Of a stretch of DNA of 64,000 nt, positions 8,175 through 44,385 are shown one piece after another (within the stretch, counting starts at the first letter, position 1; the number at the start of each line of letters is the position of its first letter). The notes under the pieces are model-generated. The model was given only the letters and a program-made list of their open reading frames with translations. It was not told the origin of the DNA and searched no databases. The translations under genes were made by a program, and so were the position numbers. This DNA is from Clostridia bacterium. GTDB taxonomy: Bacteria > Bacillota > Clostridia > Christensenellales > CAG-138. The stretch lies in contig JAFWJN010000040.1 of the NCBI GenBank assembly GCA_017514685.1, positions 5,056 through 69,055 of the forward strand, given 5' to 3'.

Positions 8175-9524
8175 ATGAACAGCTATATTGAGCGTGTATT
8201 GGCTGATGTAAAGCGTCGTGACAAAAACGAGCCTGAGTTTCTGCAGACGGTAGAAGAAGTTCTGACTTCACTGGAAGTCGTTGTTAACCAGCATCCGGAA
8301 TATGAAAAAGCCGGTCTGCTTGAGCGTTTAGTCGAGCCTGAGCGGGTCATTGAGTTCCGTGTTCCCTGGGTCGATGATTCCGGCAAGGTCAATGTCAACC
8401 GTGGATTCCGCGTCCAGTTCAACAGTGCGATTGGACCGTACAAAGGCGGCCTCCGTTTCGCAAGCCACGTCAACCTCTCCGTTATGAAGTTCCTCGGATT
8501 TGAGCAGACCTTCAAGAACAGCCTGACCACCCTCCCGATGGGCGGTGCAAAAGGCGGTTCCGACTTTGATCCCAACGGTAAGAGCGATGCCGAAATCATG
8601 CGTTTCTGCCAGTCTTTCATGACAGAGCTCTATCGTCATATCGGCAGCAACATCGACGTTCCGGCAGGTGACATCGGTGTAGGCGGCAGAGAGATCGGCT
8701 ATCTGTTCGGTCAGTATAAGCGTATCCGCAACGGTTTCGAAAACGGTGTTCTCACAGGTAAAGGCCGCAGCTACGGCGGAAGCCTTGTCCGTCCCGAAGC
8801 AACCGGCTGGGGTGCTGTTTATTACCTCGTAGAAGTTTTAAAACATCAGCATGACACGATCGAGGGCAAGACCATCGCAATCTCCGGATTCGGTAATGTT
8901 GCCTGGGGTGTCGCTATGAAAGCAAGTCAGCTCGGCGCAAAAGTCGTAACGCTTGCCGGCCCCGACGGTTATGTCTATGATCCGGATGGCGTCGGCACCA
9001 AGGAAAAATGGGACTTTATGCTTGAGATGCGTTCCTCCGGCCGCAACCGCGTCCAGGACTACGCGGACAAATTCGGTGTCCCGTTCTTCGCTGGCAAGAA
9101 GCCGTGGGGTGAAAAAGTGGATATTTGCATGCCTTCCGCCTATCAGAATGAAATCGGCATGACCGAAGCACAGCAGATGGTTGAAAACGGTGTCAAATAC
9201 TACATCGAAGTTGCGAACATGCCAACGACAAATGAAGCTCTTGGATTCCTCATGAAGCAGGAAGGTCTGATTGTTGCTCCGTCCAAAGCGGTCAACGCCG
9301 GCGGCGTTTCCGTTTCCGGTCTGGAAATGAGCCAGAACTCCGAGCGTCTGTCCTGGAGTGCGGAAGAAGTTGACAAGCAGCTGCACACCATTATGAAAAA
9401 CATCCATGACGCTTCCATGGAAGCTGCTGAAGAATGCGGCCTCGGTTACAATCTGGTAGCCGGCGCAAACATCGCGGGATTCAAGAAAGTAGCAGATGCC
9501 ATGATGGCACAGGGAATTGTCTGA
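8175..9524 (+). CDS. gdhA: NADP-specific glutamate dehydrogenase
   Basis: GPYKGGLRF and PMGGAKGGSDFDP motifs, 449 aa hexameric GDH type. Confidence 0.95.
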   Translation: MNSYIERVLADVKRRDKNEPEFLQTVEEVLTSLEVVVNQHPEYEKAGLLERLVEPERVIEFRVPWVDDSGKVNVNRGFRVQFNSAIGPYKGGLRFASHVNLSVMKFLGFEQTFKNSLTTLPMGGAKGGSDFDPNGKSDAEIMRFCQSFMTELYRHIGSNIDVPAGDIGVGGREIGYLFGQYKRIRNGFENGVLTGKGRSYGGSLVRPEATGWGAVYYLVEVLKHQHDTIEGKTIAISGFGNVAWGVAMKASQLGAKVVTLAGPDGYVYDPDGVGTKEKWDFMLEMRSSGRNRVQDYADKFGVPFFAGKKPWGEKVDICMPSAYQNEIGMTEAQQMVENGVKYYIEVANMPTTNEALGFLMKQEGLIVAPSKAVNAGGVSVSGLEMSQNSERLSWSAEEVDKQLHTIMKNIHDASMEAAEECGLGYNLVAGANIAGFKKVADAMMAQGIV

Positions 9525-9544
9525 TAACGAAATACGGATTCACG

Positions 9545-9574
9545 GCGGCGCACTCCTTTGTGCGCCGCTTTTTG
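9545..9574 (+). terminator. Rho-independent terminator after gdhA
   Basis: GCGGCGCAC-TCCTTT-GTGCGCCGC followed by TTTTTG. Confidence 0.8.
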
Positions 9575-9651
9575 TGAGCATTTCCCTTTGGAAACAAACC
9601 GATCACAGCTGGAACGGCAAATTATTGACTCGATTAATGAGCGTAAAATGA

Positions 9652-9680
9652 TTGCGCATAAAAAAGATTTATGGTATACT
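9652..9680 (+). promoter_or_regulatory. Candidate upp promoter
   Basis: TTGCGC-17 nt-TATACT. Confidence 0.5.
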
Positions 9681-9707
9681 GAAAAAAATCGTTAAGGGAG
9701 ATTTGTT

Positions 9708-10346
9708 ATGCAGTCAAATAACGTTTTTGTTTTTGATCATCCGCTGATTCAGCACAAGATTTCACTTCTTCGCGACAAGAATACCGGAACAAGAGATTTC
9801 CGTACCCTTGTAAAAGAACTGGCAACACTGATGGTTTATGAAGTAACCAAGGACTTCGAGCTGGTGGAAACCGAGATCGAAACTCCGATCGCCAAAACAA
9901 AAACCAAAGTCCTTTCGGATAAGAAGATCTCTTTGGTCCCGATCCTTCGCGCAGGTCTCGGCATGGTCGAGGGTGTTACCGATCTTCTTCCGAATGCACG
10001 CGTCGGGCATATCGGTCTTTACCGTCATCCGGAAACGCATGAACCGGTAGAATACTATTGCAAACTTCCTGCTGATGTAGCAGACAGCACGGTTATCGTT
10101 CTTGAACCTATGTTCGCTACCGGCGGAAGCCTGACCGCGACCATCGATATCCTGGAAAACCGTTATCACTGCAAGGATATCCGTCTGGTCTGCCTGATTG
10201 CTGCCAAGCCCGGTGTGGAACGCGTTATGAACGCTCATCCGAACATCAAGCTCTATTGCGCAGCAATTGACGAAAAGCTGAACGACCACGCCTATATCGT
10301 ACCCGGACTCGGCGATGCAGGCGACCGTATTTTCGGCACAAAATAA
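9708..10346 (+). CDS. upp: Uracil phosphoribosyltransferase
   Basis: [17 protein letters not shown]-terminus, PRPP-binding loop [14 protein letters not shown]-terminal [16 protein letters not shown]. Confidence 0.95.
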
Positions 10347-25190: not shown

Positions 25191-25772
25191 TTATTCTCCT
25201 TCGCATTGCCGGATCATCGGATATGGGATAAACTCATCCGGAACATCCGTTTTCGGAGCCAGCTGTTTTTCCATCCAGATCACACTGTACCATCTTCCGA
25301 ATTTATAACCGCAGTTCTGAAAGGTTCCCTTTGTTCTGTATCCGATCCGAAAATGAAATTTCTCGCTGTCGTTGGACAGATAAGGATCGCCCTCCGGTGC
25401 GATTGTTATGCAAGCGTACAGCGTAAACACATTCTGTTTTAAAAGAATCATTTCCAGTTTCCGGTACAATTCTCTTCCGATTCCCTGCCTGCGGTAATTC
25501 CGGTCCAGATATATGGTCGCGACTGCGCAGTGCTTGTACGCTGGTCTCGGATGAAAAGGCGATGCATACGCATAACCGATAATGAGCCCGTCCTTTTCCG
25601 CAACAAGATAAGGATATTCCCTTTGCACTGTCTCCATTCTTGCATGAAATTCTTCAACGGAAGGACTTTCATATTCAAATGAGACTGCTGTTTCTGTCAC
25701 ATAGGGAGCATAGATTTCCAAAAGCCTTCCCGCGTCTTGTTCTTCTGCATTCCGGATAATTAAATCATTCAT
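25191..25772 (-). CDS. GNAT N-acetyltransferase, phosphinothricin/methionine-sulfoximine acetyltransferase-like
   Basis: IRNAEEQDAGRLLEIYAPYV...FEYESPSVEEF...RRQGIGRELY pattern of the PAT/YncA subgroup. 8-nt overlap with the upstream gene. Confidence 0.78.
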   Translation of the reverse strand: MNDLIIRNAEEQDAGRLLEIYAPYVTETAVSFEYESPSVEEFHARMETVQREYPYLVAEKDGLIIGYAYASPFHPRPAYKHCAVATIYLDRNYRRQGIGRELYRKLEMILLKQNVFTLYACITIAPEGDPYLSNDSEKFHFRIGYRTKGTFQNCGYKFGRWYSVIWMEKQLAPKTDVPDEFIPYPMIRQCEGE

Positions 25773-27156
25773 TCTTCTTTCCCGCCTTCGTCGCTTCCTC
25801 TTCCGCCTGTTTCAGGACCTTCTGATAAGGCATCAGCATTCCTTCCGTCATCTTTCCGCTGATCTTTTTCTGAAGCTTCTTGTTGGACATCATTGCGCCT
25901 ACCAGATACATTGCCGCAATCATGCCTTTCTTTTTCTGCGGGAAATCATAGAATCCATGCTGTTTATAGAATCGGTGATCTTCCCTCATGAGACCCTGCA
26001 TCTGATAAATCAAATCACGGAAAATCTTAAGTCCGCCAACCCCGTAAAAATTCTTTGGCTGTCTGTAATCGTTTGAAAGACAGTATTCCAGTCTTCTTGC
26101 AAGCTGTTCCGCTTCTTTTGCTGAGCAGGCGATTCCTGCAAGATAGTTTCCTCCCACCTGCGCCCGCGCTTCCATAACAGTGCGAAGATTTTCTTCCGAT
26201 TCCAGATTTCCATCCACCAGATACCCAACCGGTTTTCCCATCGTCACTGTCCTGTGCCCGTTACAGAATTGCCTGTCATCATACATTTTGAACCGTGAAC
26301 CCATTGAATGATCTTTGATCGTATATGCATAGATGATTGCATCCCCTTTTTGAATGTTCTCTCTCAGGTAGGTATCAAAGCCATCTTTATATACACAGAC
26401 TCCGTTTGAAGCGCAATGGAAACATCCCAGGCAACCGCCTGAAAATGGGAATGACCGGAGATTGACAACCTCACATGAGGCCGAAACGGCTTTTTGAAAC
26501 CGGCTTATTAGGCAGGATAGACGTGTACCGGCATTTTCCTCCATATCAGTCACGATTATAATTCTTTTGTCTGAGGCGGGAACTGCCGATTTTTCAAAAA
26601 ACTCCCGTGAAAGACTTTCTTCTATTATTTTTTCTTTTTGAGAATGTTCCGGTACATACCTGCGCGGCTCGCTGAATCCTTCCTTCATGTTCCATAGAAT
26701 ATACGCAAAGAAGTCTTCCGCTTCCTTTCTTCCTCTTGAAGAAAGGAGATCTTCCATGTCTGCAGACAGTCCTCTTAAATATTTCATTCCGAGGTCATCG
26801 CAGTTGTCCTGAATAAACTGATGCGCCGTAATATCATAGAAATGTTTGGATGTGGAAATCTGAGTCGCATATTTCCCGCGCATATCGATTCCGTGTTCTT
26901 TTATCAGCTCGATAAAGCGATGCAGCTGTGCCGGAACGAGAAAAGTATAAACCGGATAAGAAAACAGAATCAAATCTGCTCCTTTTAATAATTCTTCCGC
27001 CGCCTGAAAGTCTTTTTCAAGGCTGTGGATTCTCTGCCCCGCATGCAGATACAAAAATTCTGCACTTTCCTTATATTTTGTCTGCAGATAATAAACCGTC
27101 TGCAGCGTAACACTGTTTTCCCCTTTCGGAGAACCGTTCACAACTAGAACCTTCAT
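25765..27156 (-). CDS. Tandem flavodoxin-fold NAD(P)H-dependent oxidoreductase; second half resembles an iron-sulfur flavoprotein
   Basis: MKVLVVNGSPKGENS flavodoxin-like_fold N-terminus. Second module starts RIIIVTD and carries CLGCFHCASNGVC (Cx2Cx2Cx5C, nt 26395-26433). Confidence 0.68.
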   Translation of the reverse strand: MKVLVVNGSPKGENSVTLQTVYYLQTKYKESAEFLYLHAGQRIHSLEKDFQAAEELLKGADLILFSYPVYTFLVPAQLHRFIELIKEHGIDMRGKYATQISTSKHFYDITAHQFIQDNCDDLGMKYLRGLSADMEDLLSSRGRKEAEDFFAYILWNMKEGFSEPRRYVPEHSQKEKIIEESLSREFFEKSAVPASDKRIIIVTDMEENAGTRLSCLISRFQKAVSASCEVVNLRSFPFSGGCLGCFHCASNGVCVYKDGFDTYLRENIQKGDAIIYAYTIKDHSMGSRFKMYDDRQFCNGHRTVTMGKPVGYLVDGNLESEENLRTVMEARAQVGGNYLAGIACSAKEAEQLARRLEYCLSNDYRQPKNFYGVGGLKIFRDLIYQMQGLMREDHRFYKQHGFYDFPQKKKGMIAAMYLVGAMMSNKKLQKKISGKMTEGMLMPYQKVLKQAEEEATKAGKKNE

Positions 27157-27299: not shown

Positions 27300-27328
27300 T
27301 TGATAAAGAGATAAAACTTTGCTAAATT
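27300..27328 (+). promoter_or_regulatory. Candidate promoter of the radical SAM operon
   Basis: TTGATA-17 nt-TAAATT. Confidence 0.45.
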
Positions 27329-27413
27329 ATTGTTGTATCGTCGGCATCATCCCGCCAGATTTACTATGACATCACAATCTTTCAGAATACAGTCTCTTAT
27401 TAAGGAGGAACGC

Positions 27414-28802
27414 ATGAAAACCACAAAAAGAGAATGGAACTATGCGGTGAAAAACTTCAATGAAGTTCACCATACCACGCTCAATCCGGAAGGCCCGGGC
27501 GTGGTACGGATTCATCTTGTGCCGCCCTTACTCCAGGATGGTGAATTCGGCGCCAGCTGCGCAATCATCAACGGGCAGGATTTTATTCCTGTCAACCGTG
27601 CCTGGAGCATTCTTCTTACAGAGTTTATCAAACAGGTGAATCAGTATGCCGGAAAGCCCATCAGTGAAGAAGACAATGAACGCATTCTCTCTGAAACAGA
27701 ATTATCGGTCCGCAAAGTCTATCCTCTGACCGGAAAGAAACGCCTGAGACAAGATCTTTACCGGATCATGCAGACATTTCAGCAGATAGCCCGCGGAGAA
27801 CCTGTCGAGGAGGCAATCGATTATTGTACCATTGGAGAATATGCTCCCTTTATGCGTGCCCCGCACCGTATGGATTTGATGGTCAGCGCGATGTCAAAAA
27901 ATGGAGCATGGCATTGCAACCAAAAATGTATCCACTGTTATGCCGCCGGTCAGCCGCAATCCGATGAACCCGAGCTCAAAACGGAGGACTGGAAGCATAT
28001 TATCGATAAATGCCGTGCCGCAGGAATCGCCCAGCTTACCTTCACCGGCGGCGAGCCAACACTTCGCGAGGACCTTGTCGAGCTGATCGATTATTCTAAA
28101 TGGTTTATCACAAGGCTCAACACCAATGGCATCCGCATCACCGAAGACTTTGCAAAAGCGCTTTGGAATGCCTCCCTTGACAGCATTCAGATCACATTCT
28201 ATTCTTCGGACAAAAATGTACACAACAGACTGGTCGGAGCAGAACGATTTGATGATACGCTTCAGGGGATTAAAAATGCGCTTGCTGCAGGGCTAAGTCT
28301 CTCTGTCAATACCCCTCTCTGCACATTGAACAGAGATTATATCAAAACACTTGAATTATTGCATCAGCTGGGCGTTATCTATGTTACCTGCTCAGGTCTT
28401 ATCACCACAGGCAACGCGGAAACAGAAGCGTCTGAAAATTTACAGCTTGATTCGGAAGAGTTGAAACTGATTCTGAAAGAAGCTGTCGATTATTGCTTCG
28501 CAAACGGTATGGAACTGAGTTTTACCTCGCCCGGGTGGATTGAAGATTCTTTCTTCTCAGAACTCGGTATCAGCACACCAACCTGCGGCGCTTGTCTCAG
28601 CAATATGTGCATAACTCCCGGAGGACATGTTGTTCCGTGTCAAAGCTGGCTTTCCGGCGAAGCGCTCGGCGACATGCTCCATGATGATTGGAGTACCATC
28701 TGGCAAGGCGAAAAATGCGCGGAACGCAGAGCATATTCAGCACTTATGGATGGCAAATGTCCTCTTCGCAAATATCGGGAAGGAGTTGAGAATCATGACT
28801 AA
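27414..28802 (+). CDS. Radical SAM enzyme with C-terminal SPASM/twitch-like Cys cluster and about 165-aa N-terminal extension
   Basis: CNQKCIHC (Cx3Cx2C, nt 27915-27938). GGEPTL SAM-binding motif. C-terminal CGACLSNMCITPGGHVVPC (nt 28584-28640) plus two more Cys. ATG 27414 with AAGGAGG upstream. Confidence 0.85.
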   Translation: MKTTKREWNYAVKNFNEVHHTTLNPEGPGVVRIHLVPPLLQDGEFGASCAIINGQDFIPVNRAWSILLTEFIKQVNQYAGKPISEEDNERILSETELSVRKVYPLTGKKRLRQDLYRIMQTFQQIARGEPVEEAIDYCTIGEYAPFMRAPHRMDLMVSAMSKNGAWHCNQKCIHCYAAGQPQSDEPELKTEDWKHIIDKCRAAGIAQLTFTGGEPTLREDLVELIDYSKWFITRLNTNGIRITEDFAKALWNASLDSIQITFYSSDKNVHNRLVGAERFDDTLQGIKNALAAGLSLSVNTPLCTLNRDYIKTLELLHQLGVIYVTCSGLITTGNAETEASENLQLDSEELKLILKEAVDYCFANGMELSFTSPGWIEDSFFSELGISTPTCGACLSNMCITPGGHVVPCQSWLSGEALGDMLHDDWSTIWQGEKCAERRAYSALMDGKCPLRKYREGVENHD

Positions 28803-30072
28803 CAGAAGACGTGTATTCGCAGGGCTGTTAAGTTTTCTACTTGTCCTCTTTGTCACCTTTGGCTTTGTTCCGACTGCAAAAGCAGACGCTTTGGATGAAA
28901 TACTGGAATATGCCATAACTGTAGATGTAAACGAAGATGGCACTCTCACCATGCTGTATCATCTTGACTGGAAAGTCCTTGACAGTACGAGTGAAGGTCC
29001 TCTTTCCTGGGTCAAAATCGGCATCCCAAATTCCCATGGTATCTCCGTGACAGCTCTCAGCGACACTATTTCGAAAATTGATTTTTATTCCGGCGGAGGA
29101 AACTACGTCCGTGTTGATCTTGACAGAAAATATTATGCCGGAGAGGTTGTTTCCTTCGACTTTGAGCTGATCCAGGATTATATGTATGAGATGAACCGTT
29201 TTACAGACGGGGAAACATATTATGAGTTCACGCCCGGCTGGTTTGATGCAAAGATTGATTCTCTTGTCATCAAATGGAACAGCGAAAATGTCCTGTCCGT
29301 CAATCCTGCATGTCTGTTAAGGGAAGATGGTTATTATACCTGGACATCTTCACTTGGTGCCGGTGATACGTATACGGTGTCTGTAACCTATCTGAACAAC
29401 GCATACTCTTTTGATGACAGTAAAACGATCGACTCTCCGGGCGGCAACGGGTCTGATGATTTCGTTTCCTGCGTTCAAACGGGTTTTTCAGTGCTTCTCA
29501 GCGGATTGTTTTTTCCAATCATCTTTGCGCTTCCGATTATTGCAATCATTCAAGCGGTGAAAAAAGCCAGCTACTCTGCGACCGGCAATTTTTCCGGCGG
29601 CAAGTCGAAAAAAGTCATCACCCGGGAAAAAATCGTCTATCATCCATCATGCCCCGGCTGCGGTGCACCGAGACCCGAAGGAAAGGATGTCTGCGAATAT
29701 TGCGGAAGGAGTCTCATTAAAAGCAAAGAAACTGTTTCCGAGAAACAAATACCTGAAGAAATGCGGAAAAAGGAGTCAGATGGAATCTACCGTTACAGTT
29801 CCGATCCCAACACCTTTATGAGGGTGCATGTGACGCACGTTCCGATCACCACAACAAAATCTTCAGGAAGTTCTTCACGTTCAAGTTCCTCACGTTCAAG
29901 TTCCTGCGCGCATAGTTCCTGTGCCTGTGCTCATTCCTGCGCCTGCGCGTGTGCATGCGCCTGTGCCGGTGGCGGAAGAGCAGGCTGTTCCACAAAAGAT
30001 TTCTACAACACTGATCTTAAGCTGGAAATGCTCGAAAAGAAAAAGAAAGCCCGGAGTAACAAAAGCAGATAA
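28795..30072 (+). CDS. DUF2207-like single-pass membrane protein with cytoplasmic zinc ribbon and Ser-rich / (Cys-Ala)n C-terminal tail
   Basis: Signal peptide MTNRRRVFAGLLSFLLVLFVTFGFVPTAKA. YAITVDVNEDGTLTMLYHLDW ectodomain. TM helix. CPGCGAP..CEYCG. Tail SSRSSSSRSSSCAHSSCACAHSCACACACACAGGGRAGCS. The ATG overlaps the radical SAM stop by 8 nt. Confidence 0.65.
   Translation: MTNRRRVFAGLLSFLLVLFVTFGFVPTAKADALDEILEYAITVDVNEDGTLTMLYHLDWKVLDSTSEGPLSWVKIGIPNSHGISVTALSDTISKIDFYSGGGNYVRVDLDRKYYAGEVVSFDFELIQDYMYEMNRFTDGETYYEFTPGWFDAKIDSLVIKWNSENVLSVNPACLLREDGYYTWTSSLGAGDTYTVSVTYLNNAYSFDDSKTIDSPGGNGSDDFVSCVQTGFSVLLSGLFFPIIFALPIIAIIQAVKKASYSATGNFSGGKSKKVITREKIVYHPSCPGCGAPRPEGKDVCEYCGRSLIKSKETVSEKQIPEEMRKKESDGIYRYSSDPNTFMRVHVTHVPITTTKSSGSSSRSSSSRSSSCAHSSCACAHSCACACACACAGGGRAGCSTKDFYNTDLKLEMLEKKKKARSNKSR
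29875..29967 (+). repeat. In-frame tandem 15-nt repeat (TCACGTTCAAGTTCC x2) followed by a TGY-GCN dicodon repeat
   Basis: Direct reading of nt 29875-29904 (two identical units), the related unit TGCGCGCATAGTTCC, then TGTGCC/TGCGCC/TGCGCG/TGTGCA repeats. Confidence 0.8.
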
Positions 30073-30079
30073 GAATATG

Positions 30080-30111
30080 AAAACTGCGTTTCCAATTGGA
30101 AACGCGGTTTT
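30080..30111. terminator. Bidirectional hairpin terminator
   Basis: AAAACTGCGTTTCC-AATT-GGAAACGCGGTTTT (one G-U pair), A/T runs on both sides. Confidence 0.75.
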
Positions 30112-30128
30112 AAAATACTACTGATTTG

Positions 30129-30788
30129 CTATGCTTGTTTTCTTCTGCAATACAGATAAAGGAAAAGAACCATCAGCAATTCCCCGAACATGCTGATAAA
30201 GAAAATCAGATCGGAGTTTCCGGTAGCAGGGCCAAGTGCTGAAAACGCAAACATAAAGAACCCGGAAAGGAACAAATGCGGTGTCTTCTGTTTTACCCAG
30301 ACAACAATTCCCGCGATCATCATCGGAATCACCGTTCCGAAAGATAAAATACGGCTGATTATATCCGCCCAACCGGGTGTGTTTTCGCTTGAGGCATAGC
30401 GGACAACTCCGGCTATCTTCTTTGGCTCCAGTACGGTTGCAATTCCTTCCGTGGCGCCGGCAATCATTAGCAGAACTGTGAACACCCAAACCCCGACCAT
30501 GACCGGCTTTTTCAGTTTCAGCGCATATCCGCAGATCGGGAACAGCAGCGGGATCAGAATGCCGTGGGCTACAAAACGGACCGGGCTGATTGCAGCAAGA
30601 ACACTCTCAGGCAAGAATGCCCCAAGCCCGATTATCACAGCATCAAGGATCAACCCGAATGTGACAAGTACAGAACAAATCACGATCGGTCTTTTCTTCA
30701 GCCGAAGCAGCATAATGGCAATCAGCAATTCTGCCGCTGCGATGCTCCATATGGCATAAGGACAAATTGTCAGCAGAAAATCTCTCAT
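30129..30788 (-). CDS. Integral membrane protein (about 7 TM), function unknown
   Basis: Hydrophobic throughout. ATG 30788 has GGAGG 5 nt upstream, whereas track start 30800 has none. Confidence 0.5.
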   Translation of the reverse strand: MRDFLLTICPYAIWSIAAAELLIAIMLLRLKKRPIVICSVLVTFGLILDAVIIGLGAFLPESVLAAISPVRFVAHGILIPLLFPICGYALKLKKPVMVGVWVFTVLLMIAGATEGIATVLEPKKIAGVVRYASSENTPGWADIISRILSFGTVIPMMIAGIVVWVKQKTPHLFLSGFFMFAFSALGPATGNSDLIFFISMFGELLMVLFLYLYCRRKQA

Positions 30789-31002
30789 CAGTACCTCCAT
30801 TTAATAATATAAATAAATATATATCCTGTTTTGCCTCAAACATTATATCTTCTCCTGCACACAATGTAAACTCCGATCTGATACTCTGTCAGTCTCTTCT
30901 CATGCAAAATGCTTGCTTTTTTCTATCAAATACGTTATCTATATTACAAGGTTTTGTGACCTTTCGTTATAATCCCATTCTCAAAAGGAGATCAAAGTAC
31001 TT

Positions 31003-31553: not shown

Positions 31554-32831
31554 TTACCGGATGCCTGTTATTGTGAGGTTATAGAGTCGCGTTTCTTTGG
31601 GAATCACCATATTATTGTATTGTTCGGTTTCTTTGGAGCAGCGCATGGATGGAATTGCATCCTGCATCGTTCCGGAAACGCTGCCGCCGGTAATGACATC
31701 GACTTTTCCATCATGATGCCAGTAACCGAGGCGGATCTCTCCGAGGACGTCCCCGCCGACCTCGTCGACCTGGAAGTCGGAAAACTCGACGAGCTCCAGA
31801 TAATCTCCGGCGTGCAGGACCGACTCGTCTGCCGTTCCGCCGGATACGACAAAGTTGTTCACGTCCGAACTGTTTTTATCCCCGAGATATTCGCTCATCT
31901 GACGATTGCCCCAGCTTTCTTCCGCCACGCCGTCACGGATGATATACCGTTCGCGGATCAATGCGCCTTCTTCATCTACCGGATAGGATTTGGAGGAATT
32001 ATCTAAAGACGCTTTTGCCAGAATCGAAATGCGGTCTCCTGTCGTATATTCCGCGACCGCTTCGCCCTTGCTCCAGTCGGAAAGCTTCCGGAACAGCAGG
32101 GCCGCGTTCATGCGATAAGCGAAATACGAATAGAGCTCCACTGCGTCCGCCGTGGAAAAGACAACGTCACTCTTCTGCAGTTTCGGGGTCGGCTCCGCAA
32201 TCAGGCGGTCTTTTCCGAAGCGGAGGGCGTCTTCCACGTCCCGGGTCAGTTTTTCGCCGTTGCAGACGCCGGATTCAAAATTCCGGTACAGTTCGATCTC
32301 ATGGTCTCCGCGGCTCGCGTTGACCACGACCTCGATCATGGACTCAGGATAGGTGACCTCGTACGTCACACCGTTCGAATTCTCAAAACGCTTATGGATC
32401 TCCCGGACGAAGATCTCATACGAATTGATTCTCTCCGTCTCCGTCTCATGCACTGCCTGCATCGCGTTCATGAAGCTTTCGGCAATCGCGGCATGGTCGA
32501 CGGGCTTCTGTTCCAAAACCGGAATAGGAACGTCAGTCAGGGTGTAAGCCGGGTTCTTGACTAGCGACGCCTGATAATACAGGTTTTTCAGTGCCTGATC
32601 CAGTTCCTCGTCCGAAGCGGTCGGATTGATGTCCCCGGAAGCGCTTCCGAGCATTTTTCCGTCTTCCAGAGGACGGTATACCTTGACTTTCAGTGTCTTG
32701 ACGCTGCTCGCGCGGTTCTGATCCAGTTTGTGCCGGATAAAGTAGAATTCCCATGCCTTGACGGTCTGCTCCGTCAGTTCATACATATCGCAGCCAATTG
32801 CCTGCAGTTTTTCTTTTACAGCCTTAAACAT
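31554..32831 (-). CDS. pmbA: PmbA/TldE-type partner of the TldD metalloprotease
   Basis: TldD/PmbA-family length and C-terminal beta-rich region without HExxxH. ATG 32831 forms a TAATG overlap with the tldD stop. Confidence 0.75.
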   Translation of the reverse strand: MFKAVKEKLQAIGCDMYELTEQTVKAWEFYFIRHKLDQNRASSVKTLKVKVYRPLEDGKMLGSASGDINPTASDEELDQALKNLYYQASLVKNPAYTLTDVPIPVLEQKPVDHAAIAESFMNAMQAVHETETERINSYEIFVREIHKRFENSNGVTYEVTYPESMIEVVVNASRGDHEIELYRNFESGVCNGEKLTRDVEDALRFGKDRLIAEPTPKLQKSDVVFSTADAVELYSYFAYRMNAALLFRKLSDWSKGEAVAEYTTGDRISILAKASLDNSSKSYPVDEEGALIRERYIIRDGVAEESWGNRQMSEYLGDKNSSDVNNFVVSGGTADESVLHAGDYLELVEFSDFQVDEVGGDVLGEIRLGYWHHDGKVDVITGGSVSGTMQDAIPSMRCSKETEQYNNMVIPKETRLYNLTITGIR

Positions 32832-34267
32832 TATCCAAGCCTCGCTTTCGTTTTCAGATAGGGACCGCCGTCTGCCACTTTGACCCATTCCTTGTAGCCT
32901 TTTCCGCAGCCGCCGTTTCCATCCACTCTGCGGTCTGTGCTCGCCATGCAGATGTTACCAAGCAGGTCCGGAACGTATCCTGTCATGATGACAGGGGATA
33001 CGACTTTTCCGGTCAGTTTCCCGTCTTTGATCTCGTATCCGCGGGAAACAATGCACTGGATCCCCCAGTGCTTGGGGTCCTCCATGCCGCTCTCCGTTCC
33101 GGAAAGCAGGTATCCGTGTTTAACGGACGCAATCATGTCATCCACGGAATCCGTGCCCGAATCGAAGATCGTGTTTGTCATACGGGTGTATGCCTTATGG
33201 GCAAAATTCTGCCGTTTGCCGTTTCCGGTCGGCTGTCCTCCGAGACGCAATGCCGCCAGGGCGTCGCAAATCCCTGTCTTTAAAATGCCGTGATCGATCT
33301 CGATGACGTCTCCTGCGATAATGCCTTCGTCGTCGAACGCGTATGCCGTAACGCTGTCTGCGCAGAGCGCGCCCTCATGCATTGTGACCTTGTCGCTTCC
33401 GACTCTTTGTCCAATGTATTTTGCGCCGAGTGCTCTTTCCTTGACGAACATATCCATCTCCACGCCGTGACCGAATGCCTCATGGGCAATCAGTCCAGTG
33501 ATGCCCGGATCCGTGATGATCTCGTATTCTCCCGGAACGATCTTTTCGGAACTCAGCAGATCCTGCATCAGCTTCGGGAATTCTTCCAGCGTTTCTTTCA
33601 GGCGGAAGAGGATCTCGGGACCGCCGAGGCCGGATACACCTTTGTACGCCATCTTCATTTCTCCCTCTTCATTGGGAGCAAACGATGCGATCGATCCTTC
33701 GGCATATACATAACTTTGGCGAAGGAAGCGGTTCTTCGAGATAAACATCTTTGAGATATGCGTGGACATTCCCCTTACGTTGCAGTCGCGCGCGCCGGGG
33801 ATGATCTCCATGCCGCGGTCGGAAAGCGACTGCAGAAACGATACCAGCTTTTCCGGATCTTCCGTCTCCGGAAGCTGTTCGGTCTCTTTCTCAACGAACA
33901 GTTCGAGCGGTTCGTCCGAAAGCAGTCCTGTCTCATATACCGGCGTTTTGGTCTTTTCCAGCACTTTTATCTGCCGGTCCAGTTCGTCCCGGATCTTTCT
34001 GACCGCCGCTTCGGGATCTTCCTGATCGATCTCGTTGAACGCGTATTCGCTGTAAAGACCGTTTTTCGCGACGCGGACGACATTGCCGCGCTCTGTTGTC
34101 ATGTTCGAGTTGGTCACAGACTTGCTGCGCTGTGACATCTGAATCGTAAAGCCGACGGAATCCGTGGACAGTACGCTGACATAGTCATACGTTTTGCCAA
34201 GCAGATCCACCAGCTGGTGCACCCACGGCACGATGCCGTTCAGATAGGGTGAAAACGGTGCCTTCAT
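32831..34267 (-). CDS. tldD: TldD-family metalloprotease
   Basis: HEAFGHGVE zinc motif and GxC-containing C-terminal region (GNGGCGKG). AAAGGAGG SD. Confidence 0.87.
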   Translation of the reverse strand: MKAPFSPYLNGIVPWVHQLVDLLGKTYDYVSVLSTDSVGFTIQMSQRSKSVTNSNMTTERGNVVRVAKNGLYSEYAFNEIDQEDPEAAVRKIRDELDRQIKVLEKTKTPVYETGLLSDEPLELFVEKETEQLPETEDPEKLVSFLQSLSDRGMEIIPGARDCNVRGMSTHISKMFISKNRFLRQSYVYAEGSIASFAPNEEGEMKMAYKGVSGLGGPEILFRLKETLEEFPKLMQDLLSSEKIVPGEYEIITDPGITGLIAHEAFGHGVEMDMFVKERALGAKYIGQRVGSDKVTMHEGALCADSVTAYAFDDEGIIAGDVIEIDHGILKTGICDALAALRLGGQPTGNGKRQNFAHKAYTRMTNTIFDSGTDSVDDMIASVKHGYLLSGTESGMEDPKHWGIQCIVSRGYEIKDGKLTGKVVSPVIMTGYVPDLLGNICMASTDRRVDGNGGCGKGYKEWVKVADGGPYLKTKARLG

Positions 34268-44309: not shown

Positions 44310-44385
44310 GCTCGATTCGTCTAGTGGCCTAGGACACCGCCCTCTCACGGCGGTAACACGGGTTCGACTCCCGTATCGGGTACCA
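44310..44385 (+). tRNA. tRNA-Glu (anticodon CUC), CCA encoded
   Basis: Cloverleaf folded by hand: acceptor GCTCGAT/ATCGGGT (two G-U pairs), anticodon arm CCGCC-CTCTCAC-GGCGG, T arm ACGGG-TTCGACT-CCCGT. Near-identical core to B. subtilis tRNA-Glu. Confidence 0.9.

Follow-up and report, generated by a model that had tools for sequence, protein, structure and literature searches.

What does a radical S-adenosylmethionine (SAM) enzyme act upon when no short precursor peptide is encoded beside it? This question is raised by a two-gene unit at positions 27414-30072 of a 64 000-nt stretch of DNA from a Clostridia bacterium (contig JAFWJN010000040.1; the whole stretch is termed the window herein), in which the gene for a radical SAM/SPASM-type enzyme overlaps that of a 425 amino acid (aa) membrane protein bearing a (Cys-Ala)n tail. 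Radical SAM/SPASM maturases are a main source of new peptide chemistry and, with few exceptions, the substrates known for them are either short exported peptides or a small number of soluble proteins. In the present case the one plausible substrate is a membrane protein's cytoplasmic tail, which is encoded with the enzyme as a fixed unit.

An earlier note on this DNA, made from its letters, had suggested that the tail is modified by the neighbouring enzyme. Having followed this up computationally, we lean, with modest assurance, towards a dedicated maturase that acts on the cytoplasmic tail of the full-length membrane protein. That the locus encodes a dedicated enzyme plus a tail-bearing partner is well supported by sequence comparison, since the two are obligate neighbours, the tail is conserved, the enzyme belongs to no characterised family and no short precursor accompanies it. 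The system appears to be new, being a radical SAM maturase with an integral-membrane-protein tail as its apparent substrate, and the pair is both undescribed and widespread; full-text literature searches found no description of the enzyme/partner system, and public annotations read 'radical SAM protein' for the enzyme and 'hypothetical' or 'zinc ribbon domain-containing protein' for the partner.

Organisation of the gene pair

The principal elements of the unit are as follows (positions are those of the window).

27414..28802, + strand: radical SAM/SPASM-type enzyme gene, 462 aa (Pfam, AGGAGG site, homologue N-termini)
28795..28802, + strand: overlap of the enzyme stop and the partner ATG, 8 nt, translational coupling (sequence)
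28795..30072, + strand: partner gene, encoding a single-pass type I membrane protein of 425 aa that carries a Cys-Ala tail (sequence, structural model)
29905..29988, + strand: Cys-Ala core, residues 371-398 CAHSSCACAHSCACACACACAGGGRAGC, candidate substrate or cofactor site (conservation)
29989..30030, + strand: post-core segment [ST]xKDFYxTxLKLxxL, residues 399-412, candidate docking ('follower') sequence (majority-residue frequency 0.81)

The enzyme gene begins with the ATG at 27414, seven bases after an AGGAGG, and ends with TAA at 28800-28802; the TTG at 27330, listed as the start of its open reading frame (ORF), is ruled out as the true start by homologues, whose N-termini read MKxxKRE. 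The partner gene runs from ATG 28795 to TAA 30070-30072, with a ribosome-binding site, GGAAGGAG, upstream. Public gene calls often begin the partner at an in-frame ATG within the enzyme gene (28750, giving 440 aa), and the start at 28795 is preferred because of the ribosome-binding site and the N-termini of homologues. The coordinates given in the earlier note for both genes match the sequence, as does the 8-nt overlap at 28795-28802.

Conservation of the pairing

Genomes, one for each species, were scanned with an alignment of enzyme homologues; a relative is encoded in at least 587 stretches, of which the 80 best loci were taken for analysis. The homologues are 63-99 % identical, with all of the best 80 loci at least 63 % identical to the window enzyme, and derive mostly from rumen and gut Lachnospiraceae, Oscillospiraceae and other Clostridia, as well as from Eggerthellaceae, Coriobacteriaceae, Atopobiaceae and a Treponema. 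In all 72 loci with more than about 1.3 kb of sequence downstream (69 parsed, together with L037, L049 and L066 inspected by hand; species-representative genomes of Bacillota, Actinomycetota and Treponema), the tail protein is the next gene on the same strand, and its tail ends (CA)n-GGGRAGC-[ST]xKDFYxTxLKL. The eight loci without a tail gene all stop less than 1.2 kb after the enzyme gene. Relative to the enzyme end, the partner start most often lies at -4 (23 loci), followed by -8 (10), -11 (7) and -1 (6), with the others mostly showing a gap of a few nt.

With regard to the reverse direction, loci found by way of the tail protein give the same picture. The enzyme gene is upstream of the partner in 8/8 metagenome loci, and in 3/3 partner look-ups (P0224, P0155 and P0193), where independent gene calls place a 4-nt overlap between the two; one of these look-up loci is that of the cultured Lachnospiraceae bacterium YSD2013. 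The metagenome tail scan confirmed only eight loci, the low-complexity CACACACA pattern having saturated it, and no matches came from a homology search that used just the distant-type tail. The pairing is thus far beyond chance, because it is kept in every testable homologous locus, and the possibility, allowed for in the earlier note, that this enzyme subfamily usually lacks such a neighbour is contradicted by all three sets of loci.

Clustering of the neighbouring ORFs in 71 loci demonstrates that the conserved neighbourhood consists of the enzyme and partner genes only. Across these 71 loci there is no conserved protease, transporter, short precursor or third partner, nor is a sulfatase conserved near the gene pair, and no Qhp genes lie nearby. 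Within the window itself there is no short Cys-rich ORF and no other ORF with a Cys-X repeat. The absence of a short precursor, as previously claimed, is therefore borne out both in the window and by the clustering, leaving the 425-aa protein as the only Cys-rich candidate.

The Cys-Ala tail and its carrier

Conservation of the partner was calculated by region as majority-residue frequency over 58 aligned partners, giving 0.87 for the Cys-Ala core, 0.81 for the post-core segment, 0.71 for the zinc ribbon and 0.69 for the ectodomain. The Cys-Ala core is thus the partner's most conserved region, which disposes of the objection that the tail might not be conserved in orthologues. In the AlphaFold 2 (AF2) model the tail (residues 355-408) is disordered, with a short helix at its end; the Cys-Ala core has a predicted local distance difference test score (pLDDT) below 50, and the post-core segment begins the C-terminal helix. 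The pattern of the core is (CA)n-GGG-R-AGC. The 48 distinct tails contain between 5 and 11 cysteines each (mode 9); Ala fills 249/258 of the positions that separate cysteines, and GGGRAGC forms the end in 44/48. A 13-aa block, CACACAGGGRAGC, is invariant across 77 distinct DNA versions, which make use of both Cys, four Ala, four Gly and six Arg codons. As these 77 synonymous versions encode one block, conservation acts on the protein rather than on a DNA repeat, and a disordered 13-residue motif that remains identical under all synonymous codons points to a precise chemical or structural requirement.

29868..29905, + strand: 15-nt tandem repeat, 2.5 copies, 95 % matches, SSRSS units of the variable Ser/Arg/Gly linker (repeat analysis)

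The tail DNA had been described as a 15-nt tandem repeat plus dicodon repeats, with a length that may vary between strains. The 15-nt repeat does exist, but it sits in the Ser/Arg linker, and the period-6 signal over the core DNA is only 66 % matched. Similarly, length variation at the strain level holds for the linker and not for the core: among strains more than 90 % identical (P0407, P0409 and P0418 against the window protein) the linker is polymorphic, SSSRSSSSRSSS versus SSSRSSS, by exactly one 15-nt unit, and the Cys-Ala core is identical. A DNA-level repeat artefact as the source of the core was rejected, given the imperfect repeat and freely varying codons. The idea of a glycyl-radical site was set aside, as the spacing of R-A-G-C differs from that of RVxG[YF] and the enzyme does not belong with activases such as PflA.

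The tail is borne by a protein with the following predicted layout.

28795..28884, + strand: signal peptide, residues 1-30, RRR plus hydrophobic core plus AKA/DA (sequence; AF2 helix 2-21)
28885..29409, + strand: extracytoplasmic beta-sandwich domain, residues 31-205 (AF2, pLDDT >90)
29485..29583, + strand: transmembrane (TM) helix, residues 231-263 (AF2; positive-inside rule)
29596..29850, + strand: cytoplasmic zinc-ribbon beta domain, residues 268-352, with CPGC...CEYC at 29650-29703 (AF2, pLDDT >90)

The tail is placed in the cytoplasm, the same compartment as the enzyme, because a K/R-rich stretch follows the single TM helix, and this agrees with the topology originally proposed. The ectodomain had been called DUF2207-like; a weak match to PF09972 and a generic beta-sandwich fold are indeed found, but the score lies below the Pfam cutoff (16.0 versus 24.4 bits, E 0.014, first 59 of 172 profile positions), and distant partners have no PF09972 match. 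The Foldseek matches of the ectodomain are the lumenal domain of ribophorin I/OST1 and the M1 aminopeptidase/LTA4H N-domain (E-values from 5e-8 to 1e-5). In the zinc ribbon, which we take to resemble the FmdB-type CxxC_CxxC_SSSS family (TIGR02605; no match to this model was found), residues C286, C289, C300 and C303 are invariant in homologues. The ribbon is nevertheless dispensable, since it is missing from Treponema and some Acetatifactor partners, which leaves the ectodomain, the TM helix and the Cys-Ala core as constant elements. These short partners of 305-317 aa (L053, 9361-10293; L054, L057 and L058, about 9354-10323) have a TM helix that nearly abuts the Cys-Ala tail.

The radical SAM enzyme

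Three regions of the enzyme are of particular relevance.

27414..27791, + strand: family-specific N-terminal domain (N-domain), residues 1-126, candidate peptide-recognition domain, akin to the recognition elements (RREs) of peptides that are synthesised ribosomally and modified post-translationally (RiPPs) (AF2 model)
27915..27938, + strand: CX3CX2C radical SAM cluster motif, C168, C172 and C175 (invariant in homologues)
28584..28760, + strand: C-terminal auxiliary-cluster region, C391, C394, C409, C435 and C449 conserved, spacing non-canonical for SPASM

The CX3CX2C motif is present where the earlier note had located it. Family scans were performed with Pfam and NCBIfam for both window proteins and for distant homologues. 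PF04055 (Radical_SAM) matches the enzyme at 80.2 bits against a gathering cutoff of 29.5, and PF13186 (SPASM) marginally so, at 24.2 bits against 21.5, with the distant homologue L085 reaching 46 bits. Beyond these generic Radical_SAM/SPASM matches, neither the enzyme nor the partner falls in a curated family of either database. The enzyme reaches no curated NCBIfam model, with the best being NirJ2 (108 bits versus 500), and membership of a curated maturase family is not indicated by the models for SkfB (56 versus 300) or StsB (53 versus 625); the partner matches no NCBIfam family at E ≤ 0.1. The enzyme accordingly lies outside any characterised family with another substrate; membership of such a family had been foreseen as damaging to the original proposal.

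The best PDB sequence matches of the enzyme are SkfB, Tes, PqqE, MoaA, BtrN, BlsE, SuiB, CteB and anSME. Its AF2 model has a pLDDT of 81.8 and a predicted template modelling score (pTM) of 0.79, and the best fold matches by Foldseek are SkfB, SuiB, anSME and CteB. The alignment to SuiB extends over 419-451 columns, which is the full length including the N-domain, and that to CteB covers approximately the whole length as well; anSME is matched at E 3e-11, with a root mean square deviation of about 4 Å over about 320 columns.

The predicted N-domain consists of a leading helix, strands at residues 19-23, 31-36, 48-52 and 56-60, and helices at 62-78, 85-102 and 108-126. This order of elements resembles that of RREs, in which a winged helix of three beta-strands followed by three helices stands N-terminal to the catalytic domain, and the SuiB and CteB alignments extend over about the full chain. 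When its profile was searched against 1.84 billion representatives, it matched only its own radical SAM family and fragments, always at the N-terminus, and the domain is present even in the distant branch of enzymes described below.

With regard to the auxiliary region, CGACLSNMCITPGGHVVPC is found at 28584-28640, and further conserved cysteines (C303, C326 and C361) lie upstream. The C-terminal Cys cluster pointed out previously is present in the window, but most homologues have Ala in place of C399, the central Cys of CGACLSNMC, so that the conserved spacing is CX2CX14C and not the canonical SPASM CX2CX5CX3C. The canonical seven-Cys SPASM motif is absent from the enzyme clade, in which C435 and C449 come after CX2CX14C; the distant enzymes L085, L087 and L088 retain CX2CX5CX3C. 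At two Acetatifactor loci (L054, 7485-9353; L058, 7476-9368) the enzyme frame runs about 160 codons further upstream and has a hydrophobic, TM-like beginning, which could be a fusion or an in-frame upstream gene without an intervening stop.

Distribution and genomic context

The cassette is found in Actinomycetota (Eggerthellaceae, Coriobacteriaceae and Atopobiaceae) and Treponema (L018, L041, L043, L044, L076, L051, L064, L068, L059 and L053), with enzymes 64-67 % identical to the clostridial ones, which suggests horizontal spread among gut and rumen anaerobes. Actinobacterial tails display a characteristic CACACGCACACACA.

Distant environmental pairs (L083-L088) possess ectodomains only 25-34 % identical, with the gene order kept, and retain the enzyme N-terminal extension as well as the beta-sandwich/TM layout of the partner. 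Their tails end SCACAC.SCACACACAGGG[RGA]AGC, preceded in L084 and L086 by a GGGFGGG-type linker ahead of the Cys-Ala core. In three distant pairs the tail continues KPxHxCPVC in place of KDFY...LKL, and the enzyme has canonical SPASM cysteines and a divergent N-domain.

The gene pair is flanked in the window by two candidate expression signals.

27300..27328, + strand: TG-extended promoter-like site, TTGATA-17-TAAATT, within the 257 bp of intergenic DNA that precede the gene pair (consensus match only)
30086..30105, strand not assigned: GC-rich hairpin with T-runs on both sides, bidirectional terminator between the partner gene and the convergent gene 30129-30800 (sequence)

The promoter-like site is weak because it is a consensus match only, with 7 sites found against 5.1 expected in shuffles. 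Upstream, a divergent gene (25765-27156, - strand) encodes a 463-aa protein that has a CLGCFHCASNGVC motif and, at its N-terminus, an FMN_red/flavodoxin-like fold. This protein could conceivably donate electrons to the radical SAM enzyme; the gene is not conserved beside the gene pair in the other genomes (71 loci). A TldD/PmbA-type metallopeptidase pair (31554-34267, - strand) lies 1.5 kb downstream, and is also not conserved in the 71 related loci; pairs of this type process some RiPP precursors. At single loci, a SAM synthetase gene (L094, 2431-3600) or a second small radical SAM gene (L089, 3640-4545; L092, 2015-2863) is found just upstream of the cassette, neither being a conserved feature. 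A tRNA gene at 44310-44382 (+ strand) is the sole Rfam match in the window.

Proposed function and alternative explanations

A maturase dedicated to the tail fits these observations because pairing and coupling are obligate, the two proteins share a compartment, and nothing in the partner is better conserved than a disordered segment, its alanines and glycines included. It also fits because the enzyme's closest relatives by structure are modifiers of peptides or proteins that contain Cys, and because the private N-domain and the post-core motif change together between branches. The unit would be a self-contained two-gene cassette, with an enzyme in which the private N-domain and the radical SAM core are followed by an auxiliary Fe-S region of remodelled SPASM/twitch type. 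From these comparisons we infer the substrate, the docking site and the chemistry: the enzyme would dock on the post-core segment as a follower-type recognition sequence, and 5′-deoxyadenosyl radical chemistry would then modify the Cys-Ala repeat iteratively. By analogy with known maturases, thioether formation is the most likely chemistry and our leading guess, with the product being a set of Cys-to-carbon thioether cross-links of the sacti- or ranthi-type. A floppy Cys-rich tail might in this way become a fixed membrane-tethered structure or a protein-derived cofactor. A bolder notion, which we regard as doubtful though worth stating, is that the repeat gives rise to a protein-derived structure of a new kind, borne by an integral membrane protein and being either a ladder of thioether rings or a metal/sulfur centre built by the radical SAM enzyme. 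If the proposal is true, this would be the first RiPP-type radical chemistry with a product still attached to a transmembrane protein, and would provide strict anaerobes with a device linking an extracellular beta-sandwich domain to a redox- or metal-active cytoplasmic tail.

Several points weigh against a tail maturase. The number of cysteines varies from tail to tail, which fits an iterative substrate but simple metal binding as well, and CXC repeats are classic metal-thiolate ligands. The second-best PDB sequence match of the enzyme is Tes, a lipid-modifying enzyme, and the auxiliary CX2CX14C spacing is like that of MoaA, the auxiliary cluster of which binds a small molecule. The identities of enzyme and partner are correlated (r = 0.60), which counts in favour of the proposal, but adjacent genes co-vary regardless of any functional relation. 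In addition, the enzyme does not match PF05402 (PqqD) at E ≤ 10 in Pfam, the N-domain profile retrieved no RRE protein from PDB sequences, and hhalign of the N-domain with a Pfam-validated PqqD sequence gives a probability of 0.6 %. Because these sequence tests are negative and the profile is confined to its own family, the N-domain is called RRE-like in topology only; the PqqD/RRE element first proposed has in its favour the predicted topology of four strands followed by three helices and the full-length alignments to SuiB and CteB, and shows no similarity to PqqD by sequence or profile.

Much of this would suit a partner or scaffold, the main alternative, which is less probable but has to be taken seriously. 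The (Cys-Ala)n-GGGRAGC tail would then bind metal ions or Fe-S clusters, or the enzyme, kept at the membrane, would act on a membrane lipid or envelope precursor; the tail could serve as a membrane anchor, as a donor of electrons, sulfur or clusters, as a NifB/HydG-style platform for cofactor or cluster assembly, or in a metallothionein-like capacity. Such roles are in keeping with CXC repeats of 5-11 cysteines in variable number, with a tail that is disordered in the apo model, with the CPVC pair gained after the core in the distant branch, with the MoaA-like auxiliary spacing and with the presence of Tes (lipid) and MoaA among the sequence relatives, and they explain the obligate pairing equally well. 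They account less readily for the invariance of residues that are not ligands, since near-constant alanines and the GGG-R-AG residues go beyond the usual demands of metal ligation. The best structural relatives, moreover, are peptide and protein maturases aligned across the N-domain, and the enzyme retains a private N-domain of RRE-like topology.

The remaining alternatives are considerably weaker. Oxidation in the manner of anSME, converting tail cysteines to formylglycine, dehydroalanine or another oxidised form without cross-links, draws on the high rank of anSME among the fold matches (E 3e-11) and on the fact that anSME, without any leader peptide, acts on the Cys of full-length proteins. 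It is improbable, however, as a C/S-x-P/A-x-R motif is lacking from the tail, sulfatases are not conserved in the vicinity, no anSME-type NCBIfam model comes near its cutoff and it would be unusual for the cytoplasm to contain several aldehydes side by side. Release of the modified tail, by cleavage and perhaps export, as a Cys-rich peptide of the classical RiPP kind is less probable still: a radical SAM maturase with a Cys-rich core resembles such an architecture, and the TldD/PmbA peptidases lie close by in the window, but neither these nor any protease or transporter is conserved in the 71 loci, the tail is C-terminal and cytoplasmic, and the ectodomain and TM helix are themselves conserved. 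It is this topology, together with the lack of a conserved protease or exporter, that makes release unlikely. Finally, the idea that the enzyme and partner genes are merely adjacent and functionally unrelated is effectively refuted by the neighbourhood census, in which pairing, order and start/stop overlap are invariant over three phyla and deep divergence, with differing flanking genes.

Comparison with known systems

The tail maturase proposed here is closest to SkfB, SuiB and CteB, the RRE-bearing SPASM/twitch maturases of sacti-, ranthi- and streptide-type peptides, which are its best sequence and fold matches. These share the same three-part order of an N-terminal domain of recognition type (a candidate one here), a radical SAM core and a C-terminal auxiliary Fe-S domain, and here, too, the candidate substrate is Cys-rich and encoded beside the enzyme. 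In contrast to the short leader-core peptides of those systems, this candidate is a C-terminal tail on a membrane protein of 425 aa. A protease or exporter is missing, the auxiliary cysteines are spaced non-canonically, no NCBIfam equivalog scores close to its cutoff, and the N-domain has no detectable PqqD/RRE sequence similarity.

Proteins that are modified and remain functional proteins provide a second point of reference. anSME/AtsB convert a sulfatase Cys/Ser to formylglycine, and QhpD cross-links QhpC, a subunit of quinohemoprotein amine dehydrogenase, by way of thioethers; by analogy, radical chemistry on the cysteines of a protein of this kind is what is proposed here. The target differs in being a repeat within a membrane protein's disordered cytoplasmic tail, with neither a sulfatase motif nor Qhp genes, and the present enzyme has an extra N-terminal domain that anSME lacks. 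In repeat-motif thioether RiPPs, such as the CX3D repeats of PapB/freyrasin and the NxxC family, one radical SAM enzyme works iteratively. The Cys-Ala tail is similar in that a short Cys-containing unit is repeated in variable copy number (5-11 Cys), but it differs in its two-residue unit, its invariant GGG-R-AGC end and its membrane-protein carrier.

The partner, for its part, resembles DUF2207/TPM-type membrane proteins, as reflected in the weak PF09972 match, in having an N-terminal beta-sandwich ectodomain, a TM helix and a low-complexity tail; the cytoplasmic tails of those proteins are Gly-rich, and the GGGFGGG-type linker of L084 and L086 is reminiscent of this. It is set apart from them by its single TM helix and by a precise, invariant Cys-Ala tail end that is tied to a radical SAM gene.

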